This document shows, piece after piece, positions 25,828 through 45,667 of a DNA stretch of 64,000 bases; the stretch's first letter is position 1, and each line of letters begins with the position of its first letter. The stretch is from an uncultured Candidatus Rokubacteria bacterium (GTDB taxonomy: Bacteria > Methylomirabilota > Methylomirabilia > Rokubacteriales > DASRDR01): the NCBI GenBank assembly GCA_963826115.1, contig CAWGVS010000007.1, positions 32,001-96,000 on the forward strand, in the 5' to 3' direction. The notes beneath the pieces are model-generated. The model was not told the DNA's origin, made no database searches, and saw only the letters and a program-made list of their open reading frames with translations. The position numbers were made by a program, and so were the translations under genes.

Positions 25828-26913
25828 TCATTCCTGGATCTCCCGCAGCACTTGGAGGACCGTCTCCGCCGGCACCTCGTCGCACACCTCGGCCCGCCCC
25901 ACGCGCCGCATCAGCACGAAGGGGACCCGGCCGTCCCGAGCTTTCTTGTCGTGGCGCAGCGCATCGGCGATCGCGCGCGGGTCGACCCCGCCGAACCGGG
26001 TCGGGAGCCCGACGTCGCGCAGGAGCGCGTCCTGGCGCGCCGCCGCGGCCGCGTCGGTCCAGCCCATGCGCACCGCGATCCGCCCCGCGCCGGCCATCCC
26101 GATGGCGACCGCCTCGCCGTGGAGCCACCGGCGGTACCCGGTCAGGGCCTCGAGCGCGTGGCCGATGGTGTGGCCGTAGTTCAGCACCATGCGCAGGCCG
26201 GTCTCCTCGCGCTCGTCCTGCTCGACGATCCGGGCCTTCGCGGCGCAGCACGTCGCCACCACGGCCTCGAGCAGGCTCGCGTCCCGGCGACGGAGCGCGT
26301 CGAGACCGGTCTCGAGCGTCCGGAACAGGTCGGCGTCCAGGGCCGCGCCCGTCTTCACCACCTCGGCGAGGCCCGAGCGGTACTCTCGCTCCGGCAAGGT
26401 CCGGAGGGCCTCCGGGTCGATGAGGACCAGGCGGGGCTGGTGGAACGCGCCGAGCAGGTTCTTGCCCCGGGCGTGGTTGACCGCGACCTTGCCGCCGACC
26501 GACGCGTCGACCTGGGCGAGCAGGGTCGTCGGCACCTGGACCACGGGCAGGCCGCGCATGAACGTCGCGGCCGCGAACCCCGCCAGGTCGCCCACCACGC
26601 CGCCGCCGACCGCGACGACCGGCGAGGACCGGTCGAGCCCGTGCGCGACGAAGCCGTCCCAGAGGCGCTCAGCCTCGCGGAGGCTCTTGCTCTCCTCGCC
26701 CTCGGTCACCTCGAGGACCGTCGGCTCGAAGCCGGCGCCCCGCAGGCTGGTGGTCACGCGCGCCGCGTGCGCACGCACCGCGGGCTGCGTGACGACGGCC
26801 GCCCGGCGCCCGAGCCGCAGCTTGGCGCAGGCCGGCCCGGCCGCGTCGAGAAGACCCGGTCCGATCTGGACCGCGTAGCTCCGGGCCCCGAGCTGCACCA
26901 TGACCTCCTGCAC
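25828..26913 (-). CDS. aroB: 3-dehydroquinate synthase
   Basis: GEESKS, GGGVVGDLAGF, PTTLLAQVDASVGGK, LNYGHTIGHALE, HGEAV and DKK. Confidence 0.97.
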   Translation of the reverse strand: MQEVMVQLGARSYAVQIGPGLLDAAGPACAKLRLGRRAAVVTQPAVRAHAARVTTSLRGAGFEPTVLEVTEGEESKSLREAERLWDGFVAHGLDRSSPVVAVGGGVVGDLAGFAAATFMRGLPVVQVPTTLLAQVDASVGGKVAVNHARGKNLLGAFHQPRLVLIDPEALRTLPEREYRSGLAEVVKTGAALDADLFRTLETGLDALRRRDASLLEAVVATCCAAKARIVEQDEREETGLRMVLNYGHTIGHALEALTGYRRWLHGEAVAIGMAGAGRIAVRMGWTDAAAAARQDALLRDVGLPTRFGGVDPRAIADALRHDKKARDGRVPFVLMRRVGRAEVCDEVPAETVLQVLREIQE

Positions 26914-26927
26914 CGCCTCGTGCGTCT

Positions 26928-27548
26928 CTACCGGATGAAGAAGTGGAACCGCTGCCGCTCGGCCTTCGGGTACGTCTTGGAGGCGTCGAGCAGCGTGCCG
27001 ACCCGGATCTCCGTCAGCCGGATCTCGAAGAGCGTGTCCTGGATCTGGTTCTGCATGAACGCCACCGCGTCGAGGTTCCGGCGGCGGGCCAGCTCGGAGT
27101 CGGCGCGCGTGTTCGGGTCGCTCGCGAACTCGCCGGTCGCCGCGAAGGCGCTGACCACCGCCTGAGCGTACGCGCGCGTCTGCTCGCGGAGCCGGGCGAT
27201 CGCGTCGTCCAGGCGCTTGGCCTCGAGCTCCACGATGCTCTGGTACACGCGCGGCATCGTCGTGGGCAGGCGCTCGACCGGGCAGGGCGGCGGCGGGATC
27301 GCCGCCCCGCCGCGCGTGACCTTCTCGACCCGATCGCAGCCCACCGCGAAGACGTACTGGCTCTCGTCGTCGCGGAAGAAGATCCAGGGCGGGTCCTCGG
27401 CGTAGAAGCTCGCCTTGATGGGCTCGTTGCGCGCCCACAGGTGAATCGAGTACTCCTGCGCGAGCGCGGGCGAAGCCGTCCCGGCGAGCAACGCGCCGCC
27501 GACGACGACGCCCAGGCCCAGCCGCGACACGAGCCGCCGGTTCGTCAT
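26928..27548 (-). CDS. Secreted hypothetical protein with coiled-coil C-terminal half
   Basis: ATG at 27548; signal peptide ending PALA; strong GC3 bias; helical C-terminal half. Confidence 0.75.
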   Translation of the reverse strand: MTNRRLVSRLGLGVVVGGALLAGTASPALAQEYSIHLWARNEPIKASFYAEDPPWIFFRDDESQYVFAVGCDRVEKVTRGGAAIPPPPCPVERLPTTMPRVYQSIVELEAKRLDDAIARLREQTRAYAQAVVSAFAATGEFASDPNTRADSELARRRNLDAVAFMQNQIQDTLFEIRLTEIRVGTLLDASKTYPKAERQRFHFFIR

Positions 27549-29391
27549 CACCGATCTCCCACCGGGCTTGCGGGGGCCGCGACGGCCGCGGGGCGCAGCG
27601 CCGCCGAGGAGGAGACCAGCGCCGGCGCGAGGGCCGCCGACGTCACGGTCCGCGGGGTCGTCGCCGGCGCCTCGCCGGTCGGCCCCGGAGGCGTGGTCGT
27701 GCCAGGCGCGGGGCACCCGGCGCGACGGGCAACGACGGCGGGGCGACGCCGGCCTGGCCGGGGGTCGACACGACCTTCGCCGTGAGGAAGACCACCAGCT
27801 CGCGCCGCGACGTCTCCGTCAGGTCGTTCTTGAAGAGCCACCCGAGCACGGGGATCTTCGACAGCCACGGGATCCCCTTCTCGTCGTTCTGGAAGGCTTC
27901 CTGGCGAAGGCCGGCGATGACGACGGTCCCGCCGTCCACGATGTCCGCCTGCGTGATCGTGTTGCGCGTGGCGACGACCGGCGCGATCAGGAACGTGGTG
28001 TTGATCCGCTCCACCGCGACCTCGTCCTTCACCGCGATGTTCAGCACGATGCGCCCGTCACCCACGACCCGCGGCGTGACCTGGAGCCGGGTCGTGACGT
28101 CCTGGAAGGTGATCGAGGCCTGCTGCGAGCCCTGCACCGCCGTGAGGCTGATGATCGGGAACTTGGTGCCGCTCGCCACCGTGGCCGGCTGGTTGTCCAC
28201 GGTCATCAGGCTCGGGGACGACAGGATGCGGGCCCGACGCTGCCCTTCCAGCGCCTGCAGCTGGATGTCGAGCGCGAAGTTGGACGCGAGCCAGCCGAGC
28301 CCGATGCCGAAGGGCGTCGCGCCGGCCATCAGCGTGCCCATCGTGGCGGGCAGGTTCAAGGCCGTCGTGGGTTGCGCAGCAGTCGCCGTGTCCCCGGAGA
28401 CCGGCCCGCCCGGCGGCGCGCCGCGCACGTCGATGACGGGGCCGTTCCCCGAGTTCCGCGGGGTCCACGCGCCGCCCCAGATGACGCCGAGCGAGCGCGC
28501 GTCGCCGCGCTGCATCTCGACCAGCCGCGCCTCGATGAGGACCGACGGCGCGGGCCGGTCGACCTTGTCGATGAAGGACCGGATCTTGGCCAGGTTGTCG
28601 GGGATGTCGCGGATGATCAGCGAGTTCGTCCGCTGGTCGACGGTCAGCGAGCCGCGGGGCGAGAGCATGCCCGCGGACTTGCCCTCTTCCTTCTTGATGC
28701 CGCCGGTGATCGCCTCCTCGACGCCCTTCTCCTCCAGGGTCGTGATCGAGTCGGTGAAGAAGTCGATCGTCTGCACGCGCTTGATACCGACGTGGCTATA
28801 CCGGAGCTTGACCACTTCCTCGGCCGTCGGAGCCAGCAGACCCTCGATCTCCTGGCGCTTGACCTCGAACCGCTGGCGGGCCAGCGCGGCCTCGCGCTCC
28901 TGGTCGGCGATCCGGAGGTCGAACTCCTTCCGCCGCTGCTGGATGTCGACCTCGCGCTGCTCGGCCCGGAAGGCCGCTTCGGCCTCCTTGGTGAGGTTCT
29001 CGAGCTTGTCGACCCGGATGATGTTGCCTTCCTGAACGTACGCGAGCTTGGAGGCCCGCACGACCGAGTCCAGGGCCTGCTGCCAGGGGACGTTCTGGAG
29101 CTTGACCGTCACCTTGCCCTTGACGTCGTCGCTCGTGACGATGTTGAGGCCGCTGAACTCGGCGAGGATGCGGAGGAGGTTGTTGATATCCGCGTCCTTG
29201 AAGTCCAGCGAGATGAGGCGGGGCCGCTGTGGGCCGCTCGCCGTCTGGGCGACGATCGGCGCGCGGAGCTGAGCCAACAGCACGGGGCCGCGGACGACCT
29301 CTTCTCCCCTTGCCGCCCCCGCGAGAGCAAAGGTCCAGGCACAGCCCAGGAGGATCAGGACTCCTCGTCTAGCCACGCCGCTCCCCCCCAT
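27548..29391 (-). CDS. pilQ: Type IV pilus secretin PilQ (frameshift near 27712 in the Pro/Ala tail)
   Basis: ISLDFKDADI..VKGKVTVKLQNVPWQQALD, VDQRTNSLIIRD, VLIEARLVE and GIPWLSKIPVLGWLFK..ELVVFLT; as sequenced it stops at 27643, the corrected frame ends at 27548 overlapping the next ATG. Confidence 0.92.
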
Positions 29392-29432
29392 CCTCGACCG
29401 TCGCGATTGGGCCGCGATGGCCACAGGCTTTC

Positions 29433-31401: not shown

Positions 31402-32457
31402 TTACTTCCGGTCGTCCGGATAGCGCATGGCCAGCCCGGTCGCGACACTCGCGAGCGGCGCCAGCTTCTCGACCATGCCTGCGTCGGTCCCGGTGCCCAC
31501 GTCGACCCGCTTGAACGGGTTCGCCCGGATCACCTCGATGCCCCACTGCCCGGCGAGGAAATCCTGAAGGCCGGGGATCAGCGCGCACCCGCCCGAGAGG
31601 TAGATCCGCTGGATGCGCTCGTGCTCCGCGGTGGTGCCGAAGTAGTCGAGCGTGCGCTGGATCTCCTGCCCGATCTCCTGCGAGACCAGGTCCAGCACGG
31701 GCTCGACCTCGACCCAGCTGATCGAGCCCTGCTCGCCCCGCACGATGGCCTCGGCCTCCGCCGGGGCCAGATCGAAGCGCTGGGCGATCGTCGAGGCGTA
31801 CTGCCGGCCGCCGACGAAGATGTCCCGCGCGTACACGTTCATCCCGCCCTGCAGGATGTTGGTGTTCGTCGTCTCGTGGCCGATGTTGACGAGCGCCACG
31901 ACCTCGTTGCCCTGGCCGGGCTCGTTGTGCTGGTACTGCGTCTCGAGGGCGAAGACGTCGACGTCGACGACGACGACATTGAGCCCGCACGCCTCCACGA
32001 CGTCGGCGTAGCTCTGGACCTTGCCCTTCTTGACCGCGACCAGCATGACCTCGAGCTGCGGCCCGTCCTGGCGAAGGATCTGGAAGTCGATGTTGACGTC
32101 GTCGATGTCGAAGGGGATGTGCTGCTCGGCCTCCCAGCGGATCGACTCGCCGAGCTCGCTCTCCGACATCTTCGGCAGGTTGACGCGCTTCGCGATGACG
32201 GAGCCACCCGACACGCCGATCACCGCCTCGGTGGCCTGGACGCCGCCCTGCACGAGCGCCTGCCGGATGGCCTGCTGCACCGCGTCCGGCTGCTTCACTT
32301 CCCCGCCCTGGATCGCTCCCGCGGGGATGTGGGCGATGCCGAACCCGGCCAGCTCGTAGCCTGACCCCTTCGGCTTGAGCTCGACCACCTTGACCGCGCT
32401 CGTGCCGATGTCGAGGCCGACGACTTCCGGTCGCTTCTTCTTCTTCCAGAACGTCAT
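31402..32457 (-). CDS. pilM: Type IV pilus assembly protein PilM
   Basis: VGLDIGTSAVK, EAEQHIPF, VDVDVFAL, LSGG and ATGLAMR. Confidence 0.95.
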   Translation of the reverse strand: MTFWKKKKRPEVVGLDIGTSAVKVVELKPKGSGYELAGFGIAHIPAGAIQGGEVKQPDAVQQAIRQALVQGGVQATEAVIGVSGGSVIAKRVNLPKMSESELGESIRWEAEQHIPFDIDDVNIDFQILRQDGPQLEVMLVAVKKGKVQSYADVVEACGLNVVVVDVDVFALETQYQHNEPGQGNEVVALVNIGHETTNTNILQGGMNVYARDIFVGGRQYASTIAQRFDLAPAEAEAIVRGEQGSISWVEVEPVLDLVSQEIGQEIQRTLDYFGTTAEHERIQRIYLSGGCALIPGLQDFLAGQWGIEVIRANPFKRVDVGTGTDAGMVEKLAPLASVATGLAMRYPDDRK

Positions 32458-32572: not shown

Positions 32573-32601
32573 AGTATGACTCGCAGGTTCAGGGGAGTCA
32601 A
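32573..32601 (-). promoter_or_regulatory. sigma70-type promoter of pilMNOPQ
   Basis: TTGACT-N17-CATACT in a conspicuously AT-rich intergenic region (32460-32640). Confidence 0.7.
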
Positions 32602-32641: not shown

Positions 32642-35484
32642 CTAGCCGCGCTTGCGGCCGGCCAGAAGCCCGCGAACGGTGGTCAGGAACTCCTGAATGT
32701 CGAACGGCTTCGAGATCACCAGGTCGACGCCGAGCTCCCTCGCGCGACGCGTTGCGCGCGCGCGATCGAACCCCGAGAGGATCACGACGGGCGTGGCCGC
32801 GTCGACCTGCTTGACGGCCTCCACGACCTCCCATCCCGGAACGTCCGGCATGCCGAGATCCGTGATGACGAGATCGTACGGGCCCTCGCGCTCCCGGACC
32901 TTGGCGATCCCCTCGAGCCCCGAGCCCGCGAGCGTCACCGCGTAGGCGGCGCCGCGCAGCATGTCCCCCACCGCCGTGCGCACCGTCTCGTCGTCGTCGA
33001 CCAGCAGCACCTGCGGGCGGTCCGTCTCGGCGGCCGTGACCAGAGGCGGCGCGCCTTCGCCGGCCGTGGGGAGGCGCAGCGTGACGGCGGTGCCGCGGCC
33101 CTCCTCGCTGTCGACCGTGGCGTCACCGCCGTGGCGGGCCATCACGCCGTACACCATCGAGAGTCCGAGACCCAGGCCCGTCTCGCCCTTCGTGGAGAAG
33201 AACGGCTCGAACGCGCGCCGGCGCACGGTCTCGGACATGCCCACACCGGTGTCCGACACCGACACGGTCGCGCGGCCGGCGTCGAGCCCGGTGCGGATGG
33301 TGATGGTGCCGCCGCGCGGCATCGCGTCCACGGCGTTGTGCAGGAGCTGCACGACGGCCTCGAGGAGCTCGGACTCCGCGCCGATGAGCTGAGCGTGCGG
33401 TCCGAAGTGGGTGATCAGCTCGATGGGGGTCCCGCGCGAGCTCGGCTCGTCCCGCCACCGCGCTCGCGTCTGCTCGACCGCGCGCTGGACGATGTCGTTC
33501 AGGTCCACGGGGGCGAAGGGCTCGGCCGGCCGCGAGCGACTGAACTCCTGGATCCGCGAGAGGGCGTCGATCCCCGTCCGCGTGGCGGCCTCGATCTCGT
33601 GGAGCCCGGAGGCGATCTCGCGGGACTTCTCCCGGGACGCGCGCTTCACGAGGAGCTGCGTTCGGCCGAGGATCCCCGCCAGGACGTTGTTGAAGACGTG
33701 CCCGACTCCGCCCGCCATGTTCAGGAGGGCCTGCATCTTTTCGTCGATGGGGACGCGGCCCGCCCGCGCGGCCATCTGGTCCTGCGCGTTCTCCAGCTCC
33801 TCGAGCCGCCGGCGGAGCCTCCGGAGCTCCTCCTCGTCGATCTGGGTGGTGTCGCGAAGGACCTCGCGGACCACCTCCCGATCGACGGGGACCTCGCGCA
33901 CGATCTCCACGGGGACGTCGCGGACGATCTCCCGGACGACCTCTACCGGGACCTCGCGGATCACCTCCCGGTCGACCGGAACCTCCCGAGCCGTCGAACC
34001 ACCTCGACCTCGCGGATCACCTCGACGGGCACTTCGCGCACGACTTCGCGGTCGACCGGCACCTCCCGGATGATCTCCTTCAGGAACTCCACGGGGACTT
34101 GAACCGGGACCTCCCGGAGCACCTCGACCTCGCGGATGACCTCGACCGGCACCTCCCGCACGACCTCGACGGCCACCTCGCGCACGACTTCCCGGTCGAC
34201 GGGGACTTCGCGGACGACCTCCACTTCACGCACCACCTCGACCGGGACTTCCCGCACGACTTCCCGGTCAACGGGGACTTCGCGGACGACCTCCACTTCA
34301 CGCACCACCTCGACCGGGACTTCTCGCACGACTTCCCGGTCGACGGGGACCTCGCGCACCACCTCTCGGAGGAACTCCACGGGCACCTGGACCGGGACCT
34401 CCCGGACGACCTCCACCTCGCGGACGACCTCGACCGGGACCTCCCGGACGACCTCCCGGTCGACCGGCACCTCGCGCACGACTTCGCGGTCGACCGGGAC
34501 CTCCCGCACGACCTCGACTTCGCGGATCACCTCGACGGGTACTTCCCGGACGACCTCGCGGTCGACCGGGACCTCCCGCACGACCTCGACTTCGCGGATC
34601 ACCTCGACGGGCACCTCGCGGACGACCTCCTTCACGACCTCCACGGCCGAGGCGGCCGGGGCCGGCTGGGCGGCCTTCATCGAGGACGCGAGGATACCGG
34701 CTGCGAGCTGGGAGGCCAGGAGCTCGTCGGGCGTCGCAGCGCTGTCGCCCGACCGGCCGACAAGCAAGAGGCCCAGCACGGCGTCGCCCGCGCGGAGAGG
34801 CAGCACGCCCGCGGTCCCGACACCCTTGCTCGGCCGCGTGAGCCACAGCGGCTCGCCCCGCCCAAGCACCTGCTTGACCTTGTCGGCCGGCAGCCGCGAC
34901 AGCGCCATGCTCTCGGGCGCAGCCACGACCCAGGACAAGGCCCCATCCGCGGCCGACAAGGCCAGGGCGGCCCACTCCATCCCCGTGGCCCGCGCCAGGC
35001 TCGGAAGGAGCGCCTTGACCGCTTCGTCGGGCGCGCCGCCGTGCCGGAGCGCCTCCTGGAGCGCCGCGGCCAGCGGCTCGAGCAGATGGAGACCGTCCGT
35101 CGCGGCCGGCGCAGCGACTCCCGCCTCGCCGCCACCCGGAACGACCTCGGCCTTCTTCAGGAGGTCCATGAGGAGCCTCGCCCCACGGACGCTCATCACC
35201 TCGACACCGGGCGGCTTGATGGACAGGAGCCGCTCGTATTGCCGCTCGTCGCCGCTGACCTCGAGGACGAGATTGGCCTCGGTCTTGAATACCTCCATCG
35301 CGTTCTTGACGACCTGCAGATGGAGGGTGCGTGCGAGCTTGCCCCCCTCGGAGCGATCGCTCGCGTCCGCGACAATCGCGATGGTGACCCCCGAAACGGT
35401 TCGCAGGGACTCGATGGCCTGGACGAGGTGAATCCCCGTCCCGACCAGCCCTACCTTGTATCCGGTACTCGGGGGCGGCGGCAT
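32642..35484 (-). CDS. Cytoplasmic hybrid histidine kinase (Rossmann-like N-terminus, GAF-like domain, long VPV repeat, HisKA, HATPase, REC); frame break near 33990
   Basis: ORFs 33961-35484 and 32642-33964 share one repeat and join across an extra ~8 nt; GHVFNN H-box, NAVDAM, DTGVGM, FEPFFSTK, GLGLGL; REC motifs VDDD, TDLGMP, SG, KPF. Confidence 0.85.
33856..34646 (-). repeat. Coding tandem repeat built from EVVREVPVDR / EVVREVPV / EVIREV modules
   Basis: About 790 nt of imperfect repeats with synonymous variation; 24-aa (72-nt) composite unit. Confidence 0.95.
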
Positions 35485-35490
35485 GGGAGC

Positions 35491-35496
35491 ATTATA
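35491..35496 (-). promoter_or_regulatory. -10 box of a probable leaderless transcript of the hybrid kinase
   Basis: TATAAT-GCTCCC-ATG, with no Shine-Dalgarno sequence. Confidence 0.65.
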
Positions 35497-35565
35497 CGCA
35501 GGGGGCCTCAGACTCGAAGATGTTGTGAAACATTCGAAAATGCCCTTCGGAAGCGCCTTCGGGGG

Positions 35566-38606: not shown

Positions 38607-39503
38607 TCAGCTGGCCGTGGGGACCTCGTCGCTCTTGGGGGGGTAGCCGGTGACGCGGTTCCGGCCCGCGCGCTTCGACCCGTAGAGGGCCTCGTCGGCC
38701 GCCCAGACGATCTCGTCCGAGTTCCGGCCGTCCTGAGGAAACGCGGCGAGACCGATGCTGACCGTGATGGGGTTCAGGCTGTCGGGCGCCATGACGCTCG
38801 ACTCGACCCGCCGGCGGAACCGCTCGGCGAACACGAGCGCGTCGGACTTGCCCGTCTCGGGCAGGATGAAGGCGAACTCCTCGCCGCCGACACGGCACGG
38901 CACGTCGCCCTCGCGCGAGGCCGAGCGCATGAGAGCCCCGAGGGCGCGCAGCACGGCGTCGCCCTTGGGATGGCCGAACTCGTCGTTGAACTTCTTGAAG
39001 CCGTCGATGTCGATCATCAGCAGGCTGAACGCGTGGCCGAAGCGGCTGGACCGGCTGATCTCCTCGCGGAGTCGCAGGTCGAAGTTCCGCCGGTTCCCGA
39101 CCTCCGTGAGCTCATCGGTGTGCGACATCTCCCGGAGCCGGAAGTTGGCCAGGCGGAGCTCCTCGACGATCCCGTCCGCCCGGGCGCCGCTCATCCGTAG
39201 CCGCTCGAGCTCCTCGTCGAGGCTCCGCTGCATGTGCCCGAGGACGTCGCTGTAGATCATGTAGAAGCCGGCGAGCTCGAGGAACGCGAGGATCGCGAGG
39301 AGCGCGAAGAAGACGGGCGCCCCCTTCGGATAGAGGGGCGCGTTCGCGGTCGACGGCAGCATGACCGGGAGGCCCAGGTAGATGAGGAACAGCAGCGGGA
39401 GCAGCCCCGCCATGAGGAAGGCAAAGAGGAACTTCTTCCGGATGTCGCGCCCGGGCAGCACCACCCGGGGTCGGCCGGGCCGAGTCGGCTCCCGCTCAGC
39501 CAA
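38607..39503 (-). CDS. Membrane-bound diguanylate cyclase
   Basis: Two TM helices, coiled coil, DELTEVGNRR, DIDGFKKFNDEFGHPKGD, I-site REGD and GGEEF; TTG start overlapping the pilD stop (start uncertain). Confidence 0.92.
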   Translation of the reverse strand: MAEREPTRPGRPRVVLPGRDIRKKFLFAFLMAGLLPLLFLIYLGLPVMLPSTANAPLYPKGAPVFFALLAILAFLELAGFYMIYSDVLGHMQRSLDEELERLRMSGARADGIVEELRLANFRLREMSHTDELTEVGNRRNFDLRLREEISRSSRFGHAFSLLMIDIDGFKKFNDEFGHPKGDAVLRALGALMRSASREGDVPCRVGGEEFAFILPETGKSDALVFAERFRRRVESSVMAPDSLNPITVSIGLAAFPQDGRNSDEIVWAADEALYGSKRAGRNRVTGYPPKSDEVPTAS

Positions 39504-40527
39504 GGTACCACTCCATGATGGGCCGGCCCCAGACGGCCGCCACGATCCCGCCGGCCGCCAGGAAGGGCCCGAAGGGCAGGTACTCGCCGAAGCGCCGGCG
39601 CCCCGAGACGAGCAGCCCCGCCGCCACCACGCCGCCCAGCATGATACCGACGAACGCGGCCACGAGCCCGCCGCCCACGCCGAGCGCCGCACCGATGAGT
39701 CCCGCGAGCTTGATGTCGCCCCCGCCCAGGCCCGTGCGTCCGAGCACCGCGTAGCTCACCCAGGCGACCACGAAGAACAGGCCGCCCGCGATGATGCAGC
39801 CCGCGACCACGTGGTCGACCTGGGCCAGCACCCTGAACGTCAGCGGCACGTCCGGCATCGTCAGGGTCGCGACGTCCACGACCGCCAGCTGGCGCCCGAC
39901 CAGCGCGCCCCACGCGCCGGCCCAGTAGACGTCGAGGCGCCGGCGCTCCGCGGGATCGACCTCGTCGTCGCCCTCGGGCGCCGGTGGAGGCGGCCCACCT
40001 TGCGCGGCCGCCCGGCGCGCCCGCATCGCCGCGATCAGGCCGAAGACGACCCCGCCCACGATGGCGCCGAGGCTCCCCCGTGAGAGGCCCTCGGGCGCCA
40101 GCACGCAGGCGCCGACCACCGCCGGGAGCGTGATGCGATCCGGGATCCGGCGCGTCTCGAGATCCGTGAACGCCGTCGCCACCATCGCCAGGCAGAGGAG
40201 AAAGACGCGGAACGCCTCCCACGTCGGACCGAGCTGCCACAGCGCCAGCGCGCCCATGAGGATGGCGAGGGCCTCGACCAGCGGGTAGCGCCAGGGGATG
40301 GCCACGCCGCAGGCCCGGCACCGCCCGCCGAGCACGATGTAGGACAGGAGCGGGATGTTGTCGACGGGCCGGATCGGGGTGTGACACTTCGGGCAGTGCG
40401 AAGCGGGCAGGACGATGCTCTCCCCCCGCGGCAGCCGCGAGATGCACACGTTGAGGAAGCTGCCCAGGAGCGCGGCCAGGATGACCCCGGCCGGCCAGGC
40501 CACGACGGGCGGGAGCGTGGTGCTCAC
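39496..40527 (-). CDS. pilD: Prepilin peptidase / N-methyltransferase
   Basis: GSFLNVCISRLP, SHCPKC..GRCRAC, YPLVE, TDLETRRIPD, GGGDIKL and PFGPFL. Confidence 0.95.
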   Translation of the reverse strand: MSTTLPPVVAWPAGVILAALLGSFLNVCISRLPRGESIVLPASHCPKCHTPIRPVDNIPLLSYIVLGGRCRACGVAIPWRYPLVEALAILMGALALWQLGPTWEAFRVFLLCLAMVATAFTDLETRRIPDRITLPAVVGACVLAPEGLSRGSLGAIVGGVVFGLIAAMRARRAAAQGGPPPPAPEGDDEVDPAERRRLDVYWAGAWGALVGRQLAVVDVATLTMPDVPLTFRVLAQVDHVVAGCIIAGGLFFVVAWVSYAVLGRTGLGGGDIKLAGLIGAALGVGGGLVAAFVGIMLGGVVAAGLLVSGRRRFGEYLPFGPFLAAGGIVAAVWGRPIMEWYLG

Positions 40528-40832
40528 GTCCCGCGCTCCGCGTCAGCCGCGCCGTACCGCTGGATCGCGCGCGCCAGCACCTGGGGCCAGCGGCCGCGGT
40601 CCCGGAGCGCCCCGAAGCCCTCCGGCGCGAGCACCCGCTCGACCTCGGCCCGGCTCACCGACACCTCGCCCTCGCCGCCGGCGAGCACCACCGTGTCGAG
40701 GACCGAGAAGCGCTCGAACACGCGGATCGCGGTCGCGAGCGCCAGGGTCTCGCGCTCGGCGGGCAAGGGGTCCGCCGCGCCCACCCGGAGCGTTACCCCG
40801 GCCAGGCTGACGTTGTCGACCCAGGTCTTCAC
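40524..40832 (-). CDS. Small hypothetical protein (102 aa)
   Basis: GTG start and stop each overlap a neighbour by GTGA; globular-looking sequence VKTWVDNVSLAGVTLRV... Confidence 0.7.
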   Translation of the reverse strand: MKTWVDNVSLAGVTLRVGAADPLPAERETLALATAIRVFERFSVLDTVVLAGGEGEVSVSRAEVERVLAPEGFGALRDRGRWPQVLARAIQRYGAADAERGT

Positions 40833-41989
40833 GCCGGCACCTCGACGGGCATGCGGTCCCGCATCATGCGGAGCGTCCGGTCCAGCACGCGGACGAGCCG
40901 CGGGTCGAAGGTGCGGCCCGCCTCGTCCCGCACGAAGGTGCGAACCTGATCGAGCGGGATCGCCCTCTTGTACGCGCGCCGCGACGTCATCGCGTCGAAG
41001 ACGTCGGCCAGGCACGCGAGGCGGCTCACCGGGTGCTGGCGCCAGCCTTCCCGGACGAACGGATAGCCCTTGCCGTCGTACCGCATGTGGTGCTCGAACG
41101 CCACGATCAGCGGGAGCCGGTTCGACCCCGGCAGCCGGGCGAGGAGATCGGCCCCCAGGACCGGGTGCCGGCACATGATGCGCCATTCCTCCGCGTCGAG
41201 GAGCCCGGGCTTGCGCAACACCTCGACCGGGATCGCGATCTTCCCGAGATCGTGGAGCATTCCGGCCATTCCGAGCTCGCGGAGGAGCTCATGGGGCAGG
41301 CCGAGCGCGAGCCCGATGCCCATCGAGATGAGGGCAACGTTGACGGAGTGGTAGAGGGTGTACTCGTCATACGACTTGATGCTGGCCAGCCTGAGCACGA
41401 GGCCTGGGCTTTGCAGCATTTGTTCCAAGATGGTGGAGGTGTACACCCGCAGGGTCCCGACGTGCTCCACCGTGAGGGCCCGCCGGGCACGGATCAGGGA
41501 CTCCACGTCCCGCAGCACCTCGATGGACCCGTAGTAGGCGCGCCGGGCGACCCCTTCCCCGCTCTGCCGGTCGGGCTGGCTCGGGGAGGCCAGGTGGAGG
41601 TGCGCGAGCCGCCGCTGGGCCACCCACTCCTCGAGGGACGGCCCAACCCCATCGGTCAGCGCCTCGAGGAGGGCGTCGATCTCCCGGTCCTCGAGGCCCG
41701 CCGTGAAGCCCACGACGCCGATCCCCCGCTCGCGCTGGCAGGTCTCGAGGAAGCGTCGGTACAGGAGGCTCTCGCGCGGGAGGATGCGGTCGTTGGCAAC
41801 GAGGAGGTCGCCCATGAACCGGTACGTCAGCCGCCCCTGCCCGCCCAGATAGGCGGTCAGGGCCTGGAAGAGGGTCTGCTTCGCGCGACGCGTCTGGGGG
41901 TGCGTCGGCAAGTAGAGACCCGCGGCGCGCAGCATGCCGTGCATGTACGTAAAGATGAGCTGCGGATCCGGCCGCGGTGCGTCACTCAT
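40829..41989 (-). CDS. HD-GYP c-di-GMP phosphodiesterase with an uncharacterised N-terminal domain
   Basis: DEYTLYHSVNV, LHDLGK, HPVLG, HHMRYDGKGYP, ADVFDAMTS.RAYK and FDP. Confidence 0.93.
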   Translation of the reverse strand: MSDAPRPDPQLIFTYMHGMLRAAGLYLPTHPQTRRAKQTLFQALTAYLGGQGRLTYRFMGDLLVANDRILPRESLLYRRFLETCQRERGIGVVGFTAGLEDREIDALLEALTDGVGPSLEEWVAQRRLAHLHLASPSQPDRQSGEGVARRAYYGSIEVLRDVESLIRARRALTVEHVGTLRVYTSTILEQMLQSPGLVLRLASIKSYDEYTLYHSVNVALISMGIGLALGLPHELLRELGMAGMLHDLGKIAIPVEVLRKPGLLDAEEWRIMCRHPVLGADLLARLPGSNRLPLIVAFEHHMRYDGKGYPFVREGWRQHPVSRLACLADVFDAMTSRRAYKRAIPLDQVRTFVRDEAGRTFDPRLVRVLDRTLRMMRDRMPVEVPA

Positions 41990-44021
41990 CGCGGTCGTCC
42001 TCGACGTCGGCGCGCGCGGCCAGCGCGGTCGCGGCCATGTCACGAAGGCGGCGCTCCGTCCGCTTCCAGGGCCAGACGCGGCGGTGCGCCAGGGCCGCGA
42101 GCGCGTCGCGCGCCCCGGGGTCGGTGATCGCGCCGAGGGCTTCCACGGCCTCCTGGCGCAGCGCCAGGTCGGCGCCCACCGCCCCCGTGCCCGCGGCCAC
42201 GTCGCGGAGAACCGGGACCGCCTCCCCGCGGCGGAGCGCCCCGAGCGCGCGCACGGCCTCCACCCGCACCTCGGGGTCGGCGTCGCTCGCCACCGTGACG
42301 AGGGGCGCCGTGGCCCGGGCCGGCGCGATGAGCGCGAGCGCGCGGGCGGCCTCGATACGGACCCGCGGATGGGGGTGCCCGAGCAGCGTCACGACCGGCT
42401 CGAACACGGCCTCGTCGCCGACCTTGCCCAGGATGAGGGCCAGATTGCGCACGAGATACCAGCGGGGATCCTCGAGCCACTCCAGGAGCACGGGCACGAC
42501 CGACGGGCCGACCTTGGCCAGCACCTGGCACATCCGCGCACGGACCTGGCGGTCGCGCTCCTCGGCCAGGAGCTGCGTGAACTCCCCCACGGCCTGCCGC
42601 GCCACGAGGCCGAGGTACTGGGCGATCAGCTCCAGCTGGCGGTCGTTGCCGCCATGCTGCCGCAGGAGTCCGCCGAGGAGGGCGACGTGCGTGCGGCCGC
42701 CCAGGCGCTCCTGGAGAACCGTGAGGTGCTGGACGCGCTCCCGGCTCCGCGCGTCGGCCTCGCGGACGGAGGCCTCGATCGACGACAGCACGTGCGTCGC
42801 CAAGTCGACCCGACCCCGGGCCAGCGCCTCGCCCAGGATCTCCTCGAGCGCGTCCGTCGCGGACGTCCCGTACTCCTCGCCGTCGACGTTGAGCACGAGG
42901 GCGAGGAGGATTTCGGCACTGCGCTCGAGGAGGGGATCCGGCTGGCACGAGGCCAGGATCTCCTCCCGCAGCTCCGCGACGAGCGGATCGTCGGCCTCGA
43001 CCACCACGCCCTCGTCCCCGAGGATGCTCGGCGCCCCGTCGCCCTGCACCGCGGCCGTGATCGCCTCGACCAGCCGGCGTCGCTGGACCTCCTCCCACGG
43101 GAACTCGAGGAGCTCCGAGCTCAGGGCGAGGAGCGACTCGTGGGGCACCAGCCGGGCCGCCATGTGTCGGATCTCGTCCTCGGTCATCTGGCTGAGGAGG
43201 TTGAGGGCGAGGACCTCGCGACCGGCCAGCGGGATGAGGTGGTCGGTGAAGAACGGTCGGAGGAGATCCTCGGGCAGCCCCAGGAGAGCCTCGACCAGGG
43301 TCCGCGTCCGCACCTCGCGGTCGGGGGCGGCCTCGACGAGCCCGTGAATCATCCCGACCGCGGCGTAGAGCCGGTCGGGGCCACCGGCCGCCGTCGCCTG
43401 GAGCCACACGACCATCGCGGGACGGTCGTACGTCAGGTCCGCGAACCGCGCCTCGACGAGCCCGACCACGGTCTCGGCAAAGAGGTCGACCACGTCGTGG
43501 CCGGTCTCGAGCATCCGCCGGGTCGCGTCGGTCGGGTCCGCGTCCCCCTCCGCCGCGTCGCCCGGCGCCGCGACGCGCACGCGCAACACGCCGCGGGTCG
43601 TCAGGAAGGCGCTCGCTCCGCCCAGCTGGCGCAGCTCGCCGTCGGGCGTGTTCAGGAGGTCGAGGAGCGCCTGGATCTCCCACTCTTCGACCGCGGCGTC
43701 GATGTCGAGCTCCCGGATGCCCCGGCTCTCGAGGTCGAACCGGAACGCCTCCAGCGCGGGATCCCGGGTCCGGAGATCGGGCCCGACCCACACGAACCGG
43801 TCGGCCTCCACGCGGAGCGGGAACGCGAGCCCCTGCTGGAAGAACTCGGCCAGCGTGCGATGCAGGCGACGGACCCACGACGAGGCGATCTCGCTCCCCG
43901 CCGGATACAGGCTGAGCGACTTCCGCGACGCCATGAGGGCCCGCAGGAAGAGGCCCAGGACCCGCTCGCCGCCTGCGGTTTCGGCGGCCTGGACGGTGTC
44001 GCTCGCGCCGCGGGCGGTCAC
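41982..44021 (-). CDS. HEAT-repeat (PBS lyase-like) protein
   Basis: DPRWYLVRNLALILGKVG, HPHPRVRIEAARAL, DPEVRVEAVRALG and LRQEAVEALG; GTG start at 44021 overlaps the upstream stop. Confidence 0.88.
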   Translation of the reverse strand: MTARGASDTVQAAETAGGERVLGLFLRALMASRKSLSLYPAGSEIASSWVRRLHRTLAEFFQQGLAFPLRVEADRFVWVGPDLRTRDPALEAFRFDLESRGIRELDIDAAVEEWEIQALLDLLNTPDGELRQLGGASAFLTTRGVLRVRVAAPGDAAEGDADPTDATRRMLETGHDVVDLFAETVVGLVEARFADLTYDRPAMVVWLQATAAGGPDRLYAAVGMIHGLVEAAPDREVRTRTLVEALLGLPEDLLRPFFTDHLIPLAGREVLALNLLSQMTEDEIRHMAARLVPHESLLALSSELLEFPWEEVQRRRLVEAITAAVQGDGAPSILGDEGVVVEADDPLVAELREEILASCQPDPLLERSAEILLALVLNVDGEEYGTSATDALEEILGEALARGRVDLATHVLSSIEASVREADARSRERVQHLTVLQERLGGRTHVALLGGLLRQHGGNDRQLELIAQYLGLVARQAVGEFTQLLAEERDRQVRARMCQVLAKVGPSVVPVLLEWLEDPRWYLVRNLALILGKVGDEAVFEPVVTLLGHPHPRVRIEAARALALIAPARATAPLVTVASDADPEVRVEAVRALGALRRGEAVPVLRDVAAGTGAVGADLALRQEAVEALGAITDPGARDALAALAHRRVWPWKRTERRLRDMAATALAARADVEDDRDE

Positions 44022-45667
44022 GGCGCCCTCCCCGCCCCAAGGGCGCCCGGCGGCTGGGCGGTGCGCGCCACGACGCCGAGCGCGGGCGCCCCGTCCCGGC
44101 TCCCGGGCGATATCGCAGCCGACCCGCGGCCGAGGCGGTCCAGGAGCGGCCGGTTGGCGTCCGTCTCCCGGACGAAGACCACGGCCTCGCGCTCCGTGAA
44201 CACCAGGCGCCATCCGCCCTGCGCGAGAAGGGTCTCGGTGAGGGGCGAGACCCGGAGTCCGAGGATCGTCTCGACGCGCCACTTGTCCAGCACCGCCTGC
44301 CAGCGCGGGCTCACGTTGACGACGTCGAGGAACTCCTTCAGCACGTCGGCGCCGTACACGTGCGTGCGGCCGTCCATGAACATCCGGTACTCCGGGTAGA
44401 GACGCCACAGCTCGTACCCGCCCCAGGCGTACACGCTGAAGAGCCGCGCCGGCAGCTGGTTCTCCCGGATGAATGCCATGGTGAGACCCGGATAGCGGCT
44501 CTCGGCGAGGTCGAGGCGGAGCGGATTCGTCGGAACCCCGGCCATCGCCACCCAGTGCGCGGACACCGCGGTCAGGAGCAGGATCGCGCCCGCGACCGCC
44601 GGCGCTCCGGGGGCCGTCAGGGCCGGCGCGAGCGACGGCAGGCGCCGGCGGACGGCGTCGCGGACGCGCGCCCAGTCGATCCGCCGCGCGCGCGCCATGG
44701 TCTCGTGGAGCCCGACCGCCAGCGGGGCGGCAGCCACGACCGCGAACAGGGGGACGTGGCGCACGGAGGTGAGCCCGAGGTTTGCGAACACGCAGATGAG
44801 TCCCACGTCGACCGCGCTGAGCCGACCGCGGCCCCAGGCGAAGGCCGGGAACAGCAGGAGCAGCATGAGCTCGAGCGGCCGGAAGCTCGCGTGGTGGAAG
44901 TTCGGGGGGAACCACTCGATGGTCGAGGTCATGAACGGCACGCTGCTGACCACCTCGAGCGGGAACAGGATGGCCCGCACCCCGAACGGATTCACGAGAC
45001 TCGCGGTGGCGGTGGCGAGCCCGAGGGCCGCCGTGAGCCCGACCACGCGCCAGCCGGCGGTGCGGCGCGCCGGGTCCACCACGAGGGGCAGCGCGGTCCC
45101 GAGTCCGACCACGGCGATCATGAGGAACGCCATCACGAAGCCCGCGTGGAGGTTCACCCAGAGCACCGTCAGCGCGGGCACCAGCACCAGCGTGTGGCGC
45201 CGGTCCACCCAGCCCGGGCGGAGGAGCCAGCCCAGGATCGCCATGAACAGGTACGTGAACGTCTGGGGCCGCGCGTGCCAGAACTCCGCGCCCGTCCACG
45301 CGGCGAGGAGCGTCACGGTCGACGCCAGGAGGGGGTGGACCCCGCGCGCCCGCATCGAGGCCAGGACCACGCCGAAGGTGGCCACCACGAGCGCGGTCTT
45401 GAGCCCGATGAGCGCGAACCGGCCCCATCGCTCCCAGAGGACCGTGAAGAGCACCTGCGTCGCCCACATGTGATTGACCCACGGCCGCCCCGCGGCCGTG
45501 TAGGAGAACGGGTCGGTCGTCGGCACCGAGCGCGTCTCGAGGATGCGCTGGCCGGACGCGAGGTACCACCAGAAGTCGAAGACCGTGAGCGACGACAGGG
45601 CGATCGTCGCCACGACCAGGAGCGTGGCCACGACGAGCGCCCCGTGGGCGGCTCGTGCCGCGGTCAT
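44018..45667 (-). CDS. Polytopic membrane protein, putative GT-C glycosyltransferase (paralogue 2)
   Basis: FDFWWYLASG..PTTDPFSYT..WVNH.W, RPQ, LWVNLHAGF, NPFG, IEW, WGGY.LW and DGR..VYG; ATG at 45667. Confidence 0.75.
   Translation of the reverse strand: MTAARAAHGALVVATLLVVATIALSSLTVFDFWWYLASGQRILETRSVPTTDPFSYTAAGRPWVNHMWATQVLFTVLWERWGRFALIGLKTALVVATFGVVLASMRARGVHPLLASTVTLLAAWTGAEFWHARPQTFTYLFMAILGWLLRPGWVDRRHTLVLVPALTVLWVNLHAGFVMAFLMIAVVGLGTALPLVVDPARRTAGWRVVGLTAALGLATATASLVNPFGVRAILFPLEVVSSVPFMTSTIEWFPPNFHHASFRPLELMLLLLFPAFAWGRGRLSAVDVGLICVFANLGLTSVRHVPLFAVVAAAPLAVGLHETMARARRIDWARVRDAVRRRLPSLAPALTAPGAPAVAGAILLLTAVSAHWVAMAGVPTNPLRLDLAESRYPGLTMAFIRENQLPARLFSVYAWGGYELWRLYPEYRMFMDGRTHVYGADVLKEFLDVVNVSPRWQAVLDKWRVETILGLRVSPLTETLLAQGGWRLVFTEREAVVFVRETDANRPLLDRLGRGSAAISPGSRDGAPALGVVARTAQPPGALGAGRAP

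Follow-up and report, generated by a model that had tools for sequence, protein, structure and literature searches.

Sensor histidine kinases are thought to signal from the input domain to the DHp domain through continuous helices. Segments dominated by P, E, V and K or R can also lie between functional domains, as do the titin PEVK segment and the proline-rich spacer of TonB, both thought to be extended or elastic spacers. Excerpts of the papers on protist membrane-skeleton proteins describe V/P-rich repeats with charges in register in the articulins (PMC2120578, PMC2289617), a 12-residue period in the tandem repeats of articulins and alveolins (PMC4303705, PMC2120578), and filaments with about 30% beta-sheet formed by recombinant articulin p60 (PMC2120578). 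For histidine kinases, the part of PMC8292422 consulted names the acidic H+1 residue as the general base for autophosphorylation and implicates H+4 in phosphatase activity.

We analysed a window of 64,000 nucleotides (the whole stretch of DNA under study) from an uncultured soil bacterium, in which the gene of a soluble two-component kinase adjoins the type IV pilus genes. The kinase region (32642..35484, minus strand) spans 2843 nt, which is not a multiple of 3. The setting in a pilus locus, proposed in an earlier note made from the sequence alone, was confirmed by Pfam matches of the neighbouring genes (pilM, pilN, pilO) and by the secretin:

27646-29430: secretin of the window pil cluster
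31405..32457, minus strand: pilM, the next gene downstream of the kinase (PilM_2, E 5.3e-75)
Downstream of pilM: pilN, pilO, an ORF in the PilP position and pilQ (Pfam matches to PilN and PilO)
32642..33964, minus strand: C-terminal ORF of the kinase region, 440 aa, GTG start, with the repeat tail, a probable coiled coil, DHp, CA and REC
33961..35484, minus strand: N-terminal ORF of the kinase region, 507 aa, with a Rossmann-like domain, GAF and most of the repeat
35491..35496, minus strand: TATAAT hexamer, part of the conserved motif CTGCGTATAAT and located 6 nt upstream of the start codon ATG

Database searches returned 11 loci, of which 9 were counted as family, the other two being weak, unrelated kinase-core matches. 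All nine came from Rokubacteria/Methylomirabilota MAGs. The gene order pilD-GGDEF-pilin-like genes-kinase-pilMNOPQ was collinear with the window, and in each of the nine loci the kinase was a single ORF of 652-931 aa directly upstream of pilM. The long database homologues (902-955 aa) were likewise encoded by one uninterrupted gene and carried HATPase_c and REC in 9 of 9 cases. The common architecture of the family comprises a Rossmann-like N-domain, an optional GAF domain, an 88-377-aa V/E/R(K)/P repeat, a coiled coil, DHp, CA and REC, so that the description of a soluble hybrid kinase with a repeat between sensor domains and kinase core is correct at the family level (9 loci, 9 full-length proteins). 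These data establish that the window kinase belongs to a hitherto uncharacterised family of soluble hybrid histidine kinases. All members seen to date come from metagenome genomes of Rokubacteria/Methylomirabilota, and their gene always lies directly upstream of pilMNOPQ. The earlier note knew of no characterised kinase of this architecture; likewise, none was found in the literature searched on Rokubacteria/Methylomirabilota pili, on repeat-bearing histidine kinases or on bacterial PEVK and histidine kinases, and that on DUF2760 contained nothing about the family; few subscription-journal papers were covered in either case. In all 8 related loci having upstream DNA, the CTGCGTATAAT motif preceded the aligned start by 12-24 nt. 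The TATAAT hexamer is probably the -10 element of the kinase gene itself, in which case the leader would be very short or absent.

The domains of the window kinase were assigned using Pfam searches and AlphaFold2 models:

35149..35460, minus strand: N-terminal alpha/beta (Rossmann-like) domain, residues 9-112 (pLDDT 76-87)
34669..35091, minus strand: GAF-like domain, residues 132-272 (block-mean pLDDT 67-92)
33997..34644, minus strand: main V/E/R/P repeat, residues 281-496 in the frame of the N-terminal ORF
33989..33996, minus strand: frame break, about 8 nt without counterpart in the canonical repeat unit
33854..33988, minus strand: last 45 repeat residues, in the frame of the C-terminal ORF
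33761..33835, minus strand: helix after the repeat, C-terminal ORF residues 44-68 (AlphaFold2 helix, heptad-like EEELRRLRRRLEELE)
33536..33748, minus strand: DHp helical hairpin, C-terminal ORF residues 73-143, two long helices, His89
33686-33709, minus strand: H-box GVGHVFNN, with Val, not Asp/Glu, after the His
33065..33514, minus strand: catalytic ATP-binding domain HATPase_c (Pfam E 3.7e-23)
32651..33013, minus strand: receiver domain REC (Response_reg, Pfam E 9.1e-23; modelled residues 318-438)

In the model, the N-domain displayed alternating strands and helices (E9-14, H17-28, E33-39, H46-53 and onward), and the glycine-rich loop following strand 1 (G15, T16, G17) was invariant across the family. 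The window domain had no Pfam match at E<=10 and its ESM Atlas leads were all below 0.9; distant relatives exceeded the Pfam cut-offs for GFO_IDH_MocA (P0191, P0196, P0197) or CoA_binding (P0187). Its modelled alternating beta-alpha fold is that of a putative NAD(P)-binding Rossmann-like domain. The GAF assignment was supported by fold, Foldseek matching the model to the solved GAF domains 3cit_B (E 1.6e-6, TM 0.67), 4g3k_B and 2vzw_A, with sequence matches below the Pfam cut-offs (GAF_3, E 1.6e-4, 22.5 bits for a cut-off of 27; GAF, 19 bits for a cut-off of 22.4). The location of the repeat between a GAF-like domain and a HisKA domain, as originally described, was therefore upheld on the GAF side by fold, whereas the HisKA match of the DHp piece was sub-threshold (E 0.032 in a search at E<=10, 14.7 bits for a cut-off of 26.9). 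The helix immediately following the repeat is, according to the model, a probable coiled coil. The N, G1 and G2 boxes of the CA domain were located (NAVDAM, DTGVGM, GLGLGL), its fold having block-mean pLDDT values of 56-90, mostly 83-90, and below 50 at residues 260-265. The REC domain had both its acidic pocket and the aspartate of ITDLGMP. No transmembrane segment was found.

The earlier note had read 32642..35484 as one hybrid kinase. Translation with table 11 gave instead two ORFs in different frames, overlapping by 4 nt. The N-terminal ORF quits the repeat frame at residue 497 and meets a stop 11 out-of-frame codons on; in tblastn, the N part matched in frame -2, whereas the C part, from 33988 on, matched in frame -1. 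Alignment with 7 orthologues revealed 26 extra nt at the break, corresponding to one 8-residue module plus 2 nt. The gene is thus interrupted within its last canonical repeat unit, by an indel whose length is not divisible by three. Both halves were under strong purifying selection: in comparisons of the window with the orthologues, the N part had a dN/dS of 0.12-0.19 and the C part one of 0.06-0.11, as compared to 0.19-0.28 and 0.07-0.11 for pairs of orthologues. Since both halves are as constrained as in the intact orthologues, we infer that the break is either a very recent lesion or a sequencing/assembly error, two options that we do not rank. Separate halves, which the earlier note had listed as refuting its reading, are what the window contains in the form of two ORFs, but this is not the design of the family, which has one ORF in 9 of 9 related loci; the split in the window reflects a lesion or an error. 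Annotation of the window gene as a single intact kinase should therefore await a check at the level of the reads.

A split that is real and lasting would make this gene either a pseudogene or the source of two proteins, one consisting of the sensor and repeat, the other of the repeat tail, kinase and REC and starting at the GTG. The two window ORFs do share a GTGA overlap, and GGAGG-like strings recur across the repeat DNA, making internal initiation conceivable; by inspection, however, the GGAGG closest to the GTG directly abuts it and leaves no spacer. Other shortened forms exist in databases (e.g. P0039, 554 aa), but most of them are located on short contigs and resemble fragments cut at contig ends, and many family fragments begin or end inside the tract on such contigs. 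Given that all nine loci and all nine long proteins are uninterrupted and that neither half displays relaxed selection, we regard a lasting split as unlikely.

The repeat tract extends on the minus strand from 34644 down to ~33854. The claim of a ~260-residue tract made almost purely of V, E, R, P, D and I proved accurate, these amino acids representing 95.7% of the 254 residues counted (V105, E59, R40, P21, I9, D9, L4, K2, Q2, F2, A1). Valine alone contributed 41%; 43% of the residues were charged, and the net charge was -27. Modules of 10, 8 and 6 aa (EVVREVPVDR, EVVREVPV and EV[VI]REV) were all seen, as had been reported, and the QVPVEFL marker recurred with the previously noted spacing of exactly 288 nt, its two copies in the N-terminal ORF being at residue 366 (window 34389) and residue 462 (window 34101). 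Synonymous codon variation between units was also evident: the 14 occurrences of EVVREVPV used 12 DNA versions, and among the 35 codons following the two QVPVEFL markers, 16 were identical, 15 synonymous and 4 non-synonymous. Tandem Repeats Finder reported a 72-nt period at 34143-34630 (6.7 copies, 76% matches, 7% indels) as well as a 144-nt period (4.3 copies). The 24-aa unit described previously was indeed the commonest arrangement, but a weak one, its autocorrelation at lag 24 (0.57) equalling the maximum of 500 phase-preserving shuffles.

The strongest regularity of the tract was a two-residue register. One phase contained V71, R33, K2, F2 and I1, the other E52, V20, P18, D7, I5, L3, Q2 and A1; R/K were confined to the former and E/D/P to the latter, so that the V/P-rich units carry their charges in register. 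Even lags gave identity autocorrelations of 0.21-0.57 (0.34-0.57 for lag 4 and above), odd lags values of 0.09-0.15. The best lags were 24 and 98 (0.57 each), lag 12 (0.39) did not rise above other even lags, and the prolines were mostly spaced by 10 and 14 residues. The register was unchanged through 217 tract residues of the window N-terminal ORF and nearly so in the tracts of the orthologues; in the L008 tract it flipped at a Gly-rich hinge. The last ~45 tract residues (in 7 orthologues) and the QVPVE[FI]L marker were positionally conserved, with pN/pS 0.29.

The earlier note had also raised the expectation of repeat-number variation and the fear of an assembly expansion. The first was realised, tract length ranging from 88 to 377 residues and differing even between kinases that are 94-99% identical. 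The second was rejected, because independent assemblies have tracts alike in kind and size (9 assemblies, together with over 20 proteins from metagenomes) and no exact DNA repeat in the window exceeds 56 nt. Tract indels among close relatives were even-numbered in 18 of 18 cases; between near-identical kinases they measured 2, 4, 6, 8, 10, 12, 14, 34, 36 or 60 residues. DNA microhomology favours slips of 6 and 12 nt over slips of 3 and 9 nt, which weakens the even-only indels as proof of selection on the register, and the two-residue register could be partly mechanical in origin. The kept register, the even-only indels, the positionally conserved tract end and the QVPVE[FI]L marker hint that the tract may do more than serve as a passive spacer.

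Among 1.84 billion representatives, 40 proteins matched the N-domain plus GAF. Distant matches such as P0187 and P0180 had the order N-domain(+GAF)-HisKA-HATPase-REC with no repeat, and a tree of 28 rows placed these two outside the repeat-bearing clade with 100/100 support. The repeat-less relatives share with the family the Rossmann-like N-domain (with or without GAF), DHp, HATPase_c and REC, and their H-box context agrees (G-V-A/G-H-x-F-N-N, ILG-x-TQLL). They differ in three respects: their sensor runs straight into the DHp helix, they have Asp at H+1, and their HisKA match is at or near the Pfam cut-off. Probably, then, the tract was a later insertion into an ancestral kinase whose sensor module and signalling helix had been directly connected, and it now separates the two. 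H+1 was V or I in all 24 family proteins and D in 2 repeat-less relatives; with Val in the window, the acidic H+1 feature of HisKA-type kinases is absent. Val/Ile at H+1, together with the Asn kept at H+4, leads us to predict that the kinase core is probably biased to phosphatase or phosphorelay activity over strong autophosphorylation. Its output would act on type IV pilus regulation.

AlphaFold2 gave the tract a pLDDT of 31-37 and no secondary structure next to confident flanking domains, a low confidence that cannot separate disorder from assembly-dependent beta structure. The most likely role of the tract is that of an extended, non-globular spacer or tether. Its variable length, the lack of modelled structure, the lack of a transmembrane segment and the placement of the same repeat class between domains of unrelated proteins (PadR HTH-repeat-membrane domain; hydrophobic N-terminus-repeat-DUF2760) speak for this role. 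A non-helical tract of such length could not relay the helical rearrangements that normally couple the sensor to the DHp domain. It would be two-faced, with a V/R face and an E/P/V face, its length free to change while its register is kept; it would hold the Rossmann/GAF module away from the dimeric kinase core yet attached, and might also have weak self-association or surface binding. The best overall explanation, which we hold with moderate confidence, is therefore a family of hybrid kinases adjoining pilM, broken in the window by a recent event or an error, in which the tract acts as a spacer or tether and the core is biased to phosphatase or phosphorelay activity.

Alternatively, the tract could be a self-assembling, articulin/alveolin-like beta scaffold (filament, sheet or ruler) that polymerises or stacks and thereby anchors the kinase to the cell pole or the base of the pilus, its reach being tuned by the number of repeats. 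Such repeats occur well beyond the kinases: the class had at least 804 matches at E<=1e-3 (the kinase family accounting for 14 among the 120 listed) in many unrelated bacterial and eukaryotic proteins. The register was kept across the class: in 120 non-kinase tracts, the 9045 informative steps contained 351 changes, and 52 of the tracts had none. This, the strict register opposing a V/R face to an acidic face and the even-only indels would suit a scaffold, as would the V/P repeats, charge register and p60 filaments that excerpts on articulins describe (PMC2120578, PMC2289617); the ESM Atlas gave a weak lead to an IMCp-labelled cluster at 0.82, below the 0.9 threshold. Yet kinship with articulins or alveolins, as advanced by the earlier note, was not substantiated. 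Pfam IMCp (PF12314) had no match in the tract even at E<=10, in a search where HMMER filters may drop weak low-complexity matches; the period is not 12 residues; and the same repeat class is found in many unrelated proteins. AlphaFold2 predicted no strands, and the net charge, the high proportion of charged residues and the L008 register flip also argue against a scaffold. The tolerated indels of 2-60 residues stand against a regular solenoid or fixed lattice, and a regular beta-solenoid whose coils each hold one 24-residue unit was rejected because such indels separate near-identical kinases. Weighing both sides, we find the scaffold doubtful and rather improbable.

A further reading, which we consider quite a long shot, is that the tract is a two-faced beta ribbon of adjustable length, which would be a bacterial counterpart of protist membrane-skeleton repeats. 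The V/R side of the ribbon might rest on the acidic surface of the inner membrane, or else associate with the other chain of the kinase dimer, leaving the acidic face in the cytosol. The ribbon may tether a Rossmann/GAF sensor, possibly of redox or nucleotides, to a phosphatase-biased kinase at the type IV pilus base, and the module may be reused in hundreds of other membrane-proximal proteins (DUF2760, PadR-membrane fusions, cortical PH-domain proteins in fungi). As for the frame break, programmed -1 ribosomal frameshifting inside the repeat, which would join both frames and is geometrically possible with the downstream frame open from 34225, is hardly credible and was rejected: by inspection there is no X XXY YYZ slippery heptamer at 33985-34000, none of the nine orthologous loci requires a frameshift, and the break coincides with sequence absent from every other repeat unit.

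Collectively, the family departs from the continuous-helix picture of sensor kinases, with 88-377 non-helical, register-keeping residues exactly at the sensor-DHp junction and the general base missing. If the tract is a tether, these kinases would be a natural example of proximity coupling instead of conformational relay; if it is a scaffold, they would reveal a membrane-skeleton-like module in bacteria. As most matches of the repeat class are unannotated and Pfam lacks a model of it, solving its structure would allow many proteins to be annotated together.

The family kinase shares with PilS/PilR its two-component nature and the location of its gene in a type IV pilus cluster, and the Myxococcus pil cluster likewise has a second kinase/regulator pair. 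The window itself also encodes a canonical PilS (6TM_PilS, PAS, HisKA, HATPase) and PilR. In contrast to PilS/PilR, the family kinase has no membrane domain and is a hybrid with its own REC, a Rossmann-like input and a repeat. Although the titin PEVK segment and the TonB spacer resemble the tract in composition and placement, to our knowledge neither has a strict two-residue register together with 41% valine. The Deinococcus bacteriophytochrome, in the part of PMC8292422 consulted, similarly lacks the otherwise strictly conserved acidic H+1, but has His where the family has Val/Ile; as in other HisKA proteins with a non-acidic H+1 in that source, the H+4 position is kept, as Asn. Articulins, alveolins and plateins, in the excerpts consulted, share with the tract V/P-rich composition, acidic and basic residues in register and even periodicity, and the articulins, described as having extended beta character, are the closest described repeat type (PMC2120578, PMC2289617, PMC4303705). 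Their 12-residue VPVP--V-V-V- differs from the 6-, 8- and 10-residue units and loose 24-residue arrangement found here, and so does the host protein, which is structural in articulins and alveolins and a cytoplasmic bacterial signalling enzyme in this family.

The earlier note had described a hybrid histidine kinase at 32642..35484. This interval spans 2843 nt, which is no multiple of three, and two ORFs were found there instead:

33961..35484, minus strand, N-terminal kinase ORF of 507 aa with an ATG start
32642..33964, minus strand, C-terminal kinase ORF of 440 aa with a GTG start

The minus-strand ORF listing gave a 4-nt overlap between the two. Three-frame translation showed that the N-terminal ORF passes from ...EVIREVEVVR into RLGRFRSTGR, which lies outside the repeat, and then reaches a stop, and that the repeat past the break goes on in the -1 frame (REVPVDREVIREVPVEV...DTTQIDEEE). 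By eye, the junction differs from the canonical repeat unit by ~8 nt; in a DNA alignment, the window carries 26 nt more at the break than 7 orthologues, the length of one 8-residue module and a further 2 nt. The data show what the gene is and that its frame is broken in the window. For the N-terminal part, dN/dS was 0.12-0.19 between the window and orthologues and 0.19-0.28 between orthologues; the corresponding values for the C-terminal part were 0.06-0.11 and 0.07-0.11. Since the window values are not above those of intact-orthologue pairs, the break is recent, tolerated or artefactual. Within the family, many database entries start or stop inside the tract (P0040, P0041, P0048, P0094, P0107, P0158, P0160 and P0039), mostly on contigs of 1-4 kb, showing that both metagenome assemblies and gene callers frequently break off there.

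A search among longer proteins gave 37 matches, the top 9 (902-955 aa) carrying the same architecture on one polypeptide. Scanning species-representative genomes revealed 11 loci, 9 of which belong to the kinase family: seven in MAGs named as Candidatus Rokubacteria, Rokuibacteriota or Methylomirabilia and two in MAGs whose title reads only 'uncultured bacterium'. The remaining 2 were weak, unrelated kinase-core matches. In 9/9 family loci the kinase ORF is uninterrupted, and pilM is the next gene, starting up to ~320 nt further on. The order pilD, GGDEF, pilin-like genes, kinase and pilM-N-O-P-Q is collinear between the window and the family loci, and the kinase is the only window gene with a frame change relative to them. 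The window locus also holds pilB, pilT, pilC, pilS, pilR, a prepilin, an HD-GYP protein, the pilQ secretin and aroB. Genes for a GGDEF diguanylate cyclase and an HD-GYP-type HD_5 protein lie either side of pilD (38610-42388, minus strand), so that cyclic-di-GMP signalling genes are interleaved with pilus genes; the GGDEF gene beside the kinase is also conserved in related loci. A 1268-codon candidate ORF with HEAT repeats near its C-terminus occupies the middle of the pilus locus (41985-45788, minus strand) in high-GC DNA. Downstream of pilQ, aroB (3-dehydroquinate synthase) follows on the same strand (25831-29430, minus strand); in Pseudomonas, pilMNOPQ is followed by aroK and aroB.

Just 5' of the kinase start codon, a CTGCGTATAAT motif (35485-35501, minus strand) stands out in DNA of ~70% GC. 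It was also present upstream of the start in 8/8 related loci with upstream sequence (L002-L009). The kinase gene probably uses it as its own -10 element, in which case the leader would be very short or missing. The 184 nt separating the kinase stop from pilM contain the single sigma-70-like promoter match in 3.4 kb (TTGACT, 17-nt spacer, CATACT; 32573-32601, minus strand), against a shuffle average of 0.0.

Pfam analysis of the C-terminal ORF identified HATPase_c (3.7e-23) and Response_reg (9.1e-23), and sub-threshold matches were found for GAF in the N-terminal ORF and HisKA in the C-terminal ORF. Neither ORF contains a transmembrane segment. AlphaFold2 modelling of the N-terminal ORF from an alignment of 17 sequences gave an alpha/beta domain at residues 9-112 (pLDDT 76-87) and, at residues 132-272 (block means 67-92), a GAF-like domain matched by solved GAF domains in Foldseek, followed by a tract with pLDDT 31-37 and no secondary structure. 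In the C-terminal ORF, the repeat tail was likewise unmodelled, ahead of a helix (44-68), DHp (73-143), the catalytic ATP-binding domain (151-300) and a receiver domain (318-438). The H-box G-V-G-H-V-F-N-N (33686-33709, minus strand) has Val at H+1 and Asn at H+4; H+1 is V or I in 24/24 repeat-bearing family proteins and D in both repeat-less relatives. According to PMC8292422, HisKA domains strictly conserve an acidic residue at H+1, which serves as general base, its loss impairs kinase activity, and phosphatase activity is governed by T/N at H+4. The non-acidic H+1 and the retained Asn at H+4 suggest that the family leans to phosphatase or phosphorelay activity.

A phmmer search with the N-domain and GAF against 1.84 billion representatives returned only 40 proteins. 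Pfam was run on 24 of these, spanning the score range outside the shortest fragments and close family members. The distant matches were N-domain(+GAF/PAS)-HisKA-HATPase(-REC) kinases, all devoid of the repeat, two were N-domain-MCP signalling proteins, and several N-domains reached GFO_IDH_MocA or CoA_binding cut-offs. This marks the input module as a rare Rossmann-like domain of cytoplasmic signalling proteins, and the repeat-less distant kinases point to the repeat as an insertion at the sensor-DHp junction.

The repeat's original description was borne out: V/E/R/P/D/I make up 95.7% of 254 residues counted, modules have 10, 8 and 6 residues, QVPVEFL markers recur at exactly 288 nt, and codons vary synonymously. 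EVVREVPV is encoded 14 times, by 12 different DNA sequences; among the 35 codons after the two markers, 16 are identical, 15 synonymous and 4 non-synonymous; and no exact DNA repeat is longer than 56 nt. The tract has a 72-nt period (6.7 copies, 76% matches). Its main regularity is a two-residue register rather than the 24-residue unit, one phase containing only V/R/K/F/I and the other E/V/P/D/I/L/Q/A. Autocorrelation was 0.09-0.15 at odd lags and 0.21-0.57 at even lags (0.34-0.57 from lag 4 on), the value at lag 24 (0.57) being just level with the best of 500 phase-composition-preserving shuffles. Its net charge, over the whole tract, is -27; 43% of the residues are charged, 47% are V/I/L and 8% P.

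In a maximum-likelihood tree of the kinase core (28 rows: all full-length family members retrieved, the window and two repeat-less relatives), repeat-bearing kinases formed one clade with 100/100 support. Repeat number varies, as the earlier note had proposed to check, family tracts ranging from 88 to 377 residues: 216-292 in the subclade with GAF (17 rows), 130-377 in that without (7 rows), 281 and 88 in P0009 (with GAF) and P0161 (2 rows), and 107 in P0159, outside the tree. In the GAF-less subclade, the repeat directly follows the Rossmann-like domain (L007:6001-8661, L008:6001-7956; P0044, P0114, P0057, P0078 and P0091). P0045 has the repeat and then REC, without kinase core, and P0161 lacks the H-box helix. 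Pairs that share 94-99% identity beyond the tract (88% in one pair) are separated by tract indels, 18/18 of which are even-numbered. Register changes inside tracts are rare (14/1156 informative steps in 15 family tracts; 351/9045 in 120 tracts of unrelated proteins with the same repeat class), with one true flip in L008, at a Gly-rich hinge. The even-only rule may be partly mechanical rather than selected, because DNA microhomology is greater at 6- and 12-nt offsets, with 12 and 32 matching runs of 4 or more bases, than at 3- and 9-nt offsets, with 3 and 7.

A tract-only search retrieved 804 proteins of 278-888 aa (E<=1e-3). Among the 120 listed, 14 belonged to the kinase family, 17 carried DUF2760, 5 CAP-Gly (dinoflagellates) and 2 PadR, most of the remainder having no Pfam domain. 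The longer-protein search also gave Gram-positive surface proteins and fungal PH-domain cortical proteins, the latter with precomputed PF12814 and PF00169 annotations. E-V-x-[RK]-E-V-P-V repeats with the same two-residue register occur in at least 804 other proteins (listed sets P0038-P0157 and P0010-P0037); holders of the class include Planctomycetota DUF2760 proteins, clostridial PadR-membrane fusions, dinoflagellate CAP-Gly proteins and basidiomycete PH-domain cortical proteins. Pfam has no model for the repeat, and precomputed MgtE_N labels on such tracts look spurious. In the sequences inspected the tract lies between domains, with a membrane-associated partner in 3/5 unrelated proteins: P0069 combines a PadR HTH domain, the tract and a multi-pass C-terminal region, and P0047 and P0120 a hydrophobic N-terminus, the tract and DUF2760.

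We favour the tract as a spacer or tether that is extended, non-globular and adjustable in length, since near-identical kinases show no constraint on its length, AlphaFold2 models it without a fold, the ancestral kinase functioned without it, and the same module connects domains in other proteins. A self-assembling scaffold is kept alive by the conserved two-residue register, the conserved tract end (pN/pS 0.29) and the precedent of articulin filaments, as described in PMC2120578, PMC2289617 and PMC4303705. No paper on this kinase family, or on any kinase carrying a tract of this sort, was found among the titles, abstracts and matching passages searched, in which subscription journals are sparsely covered.
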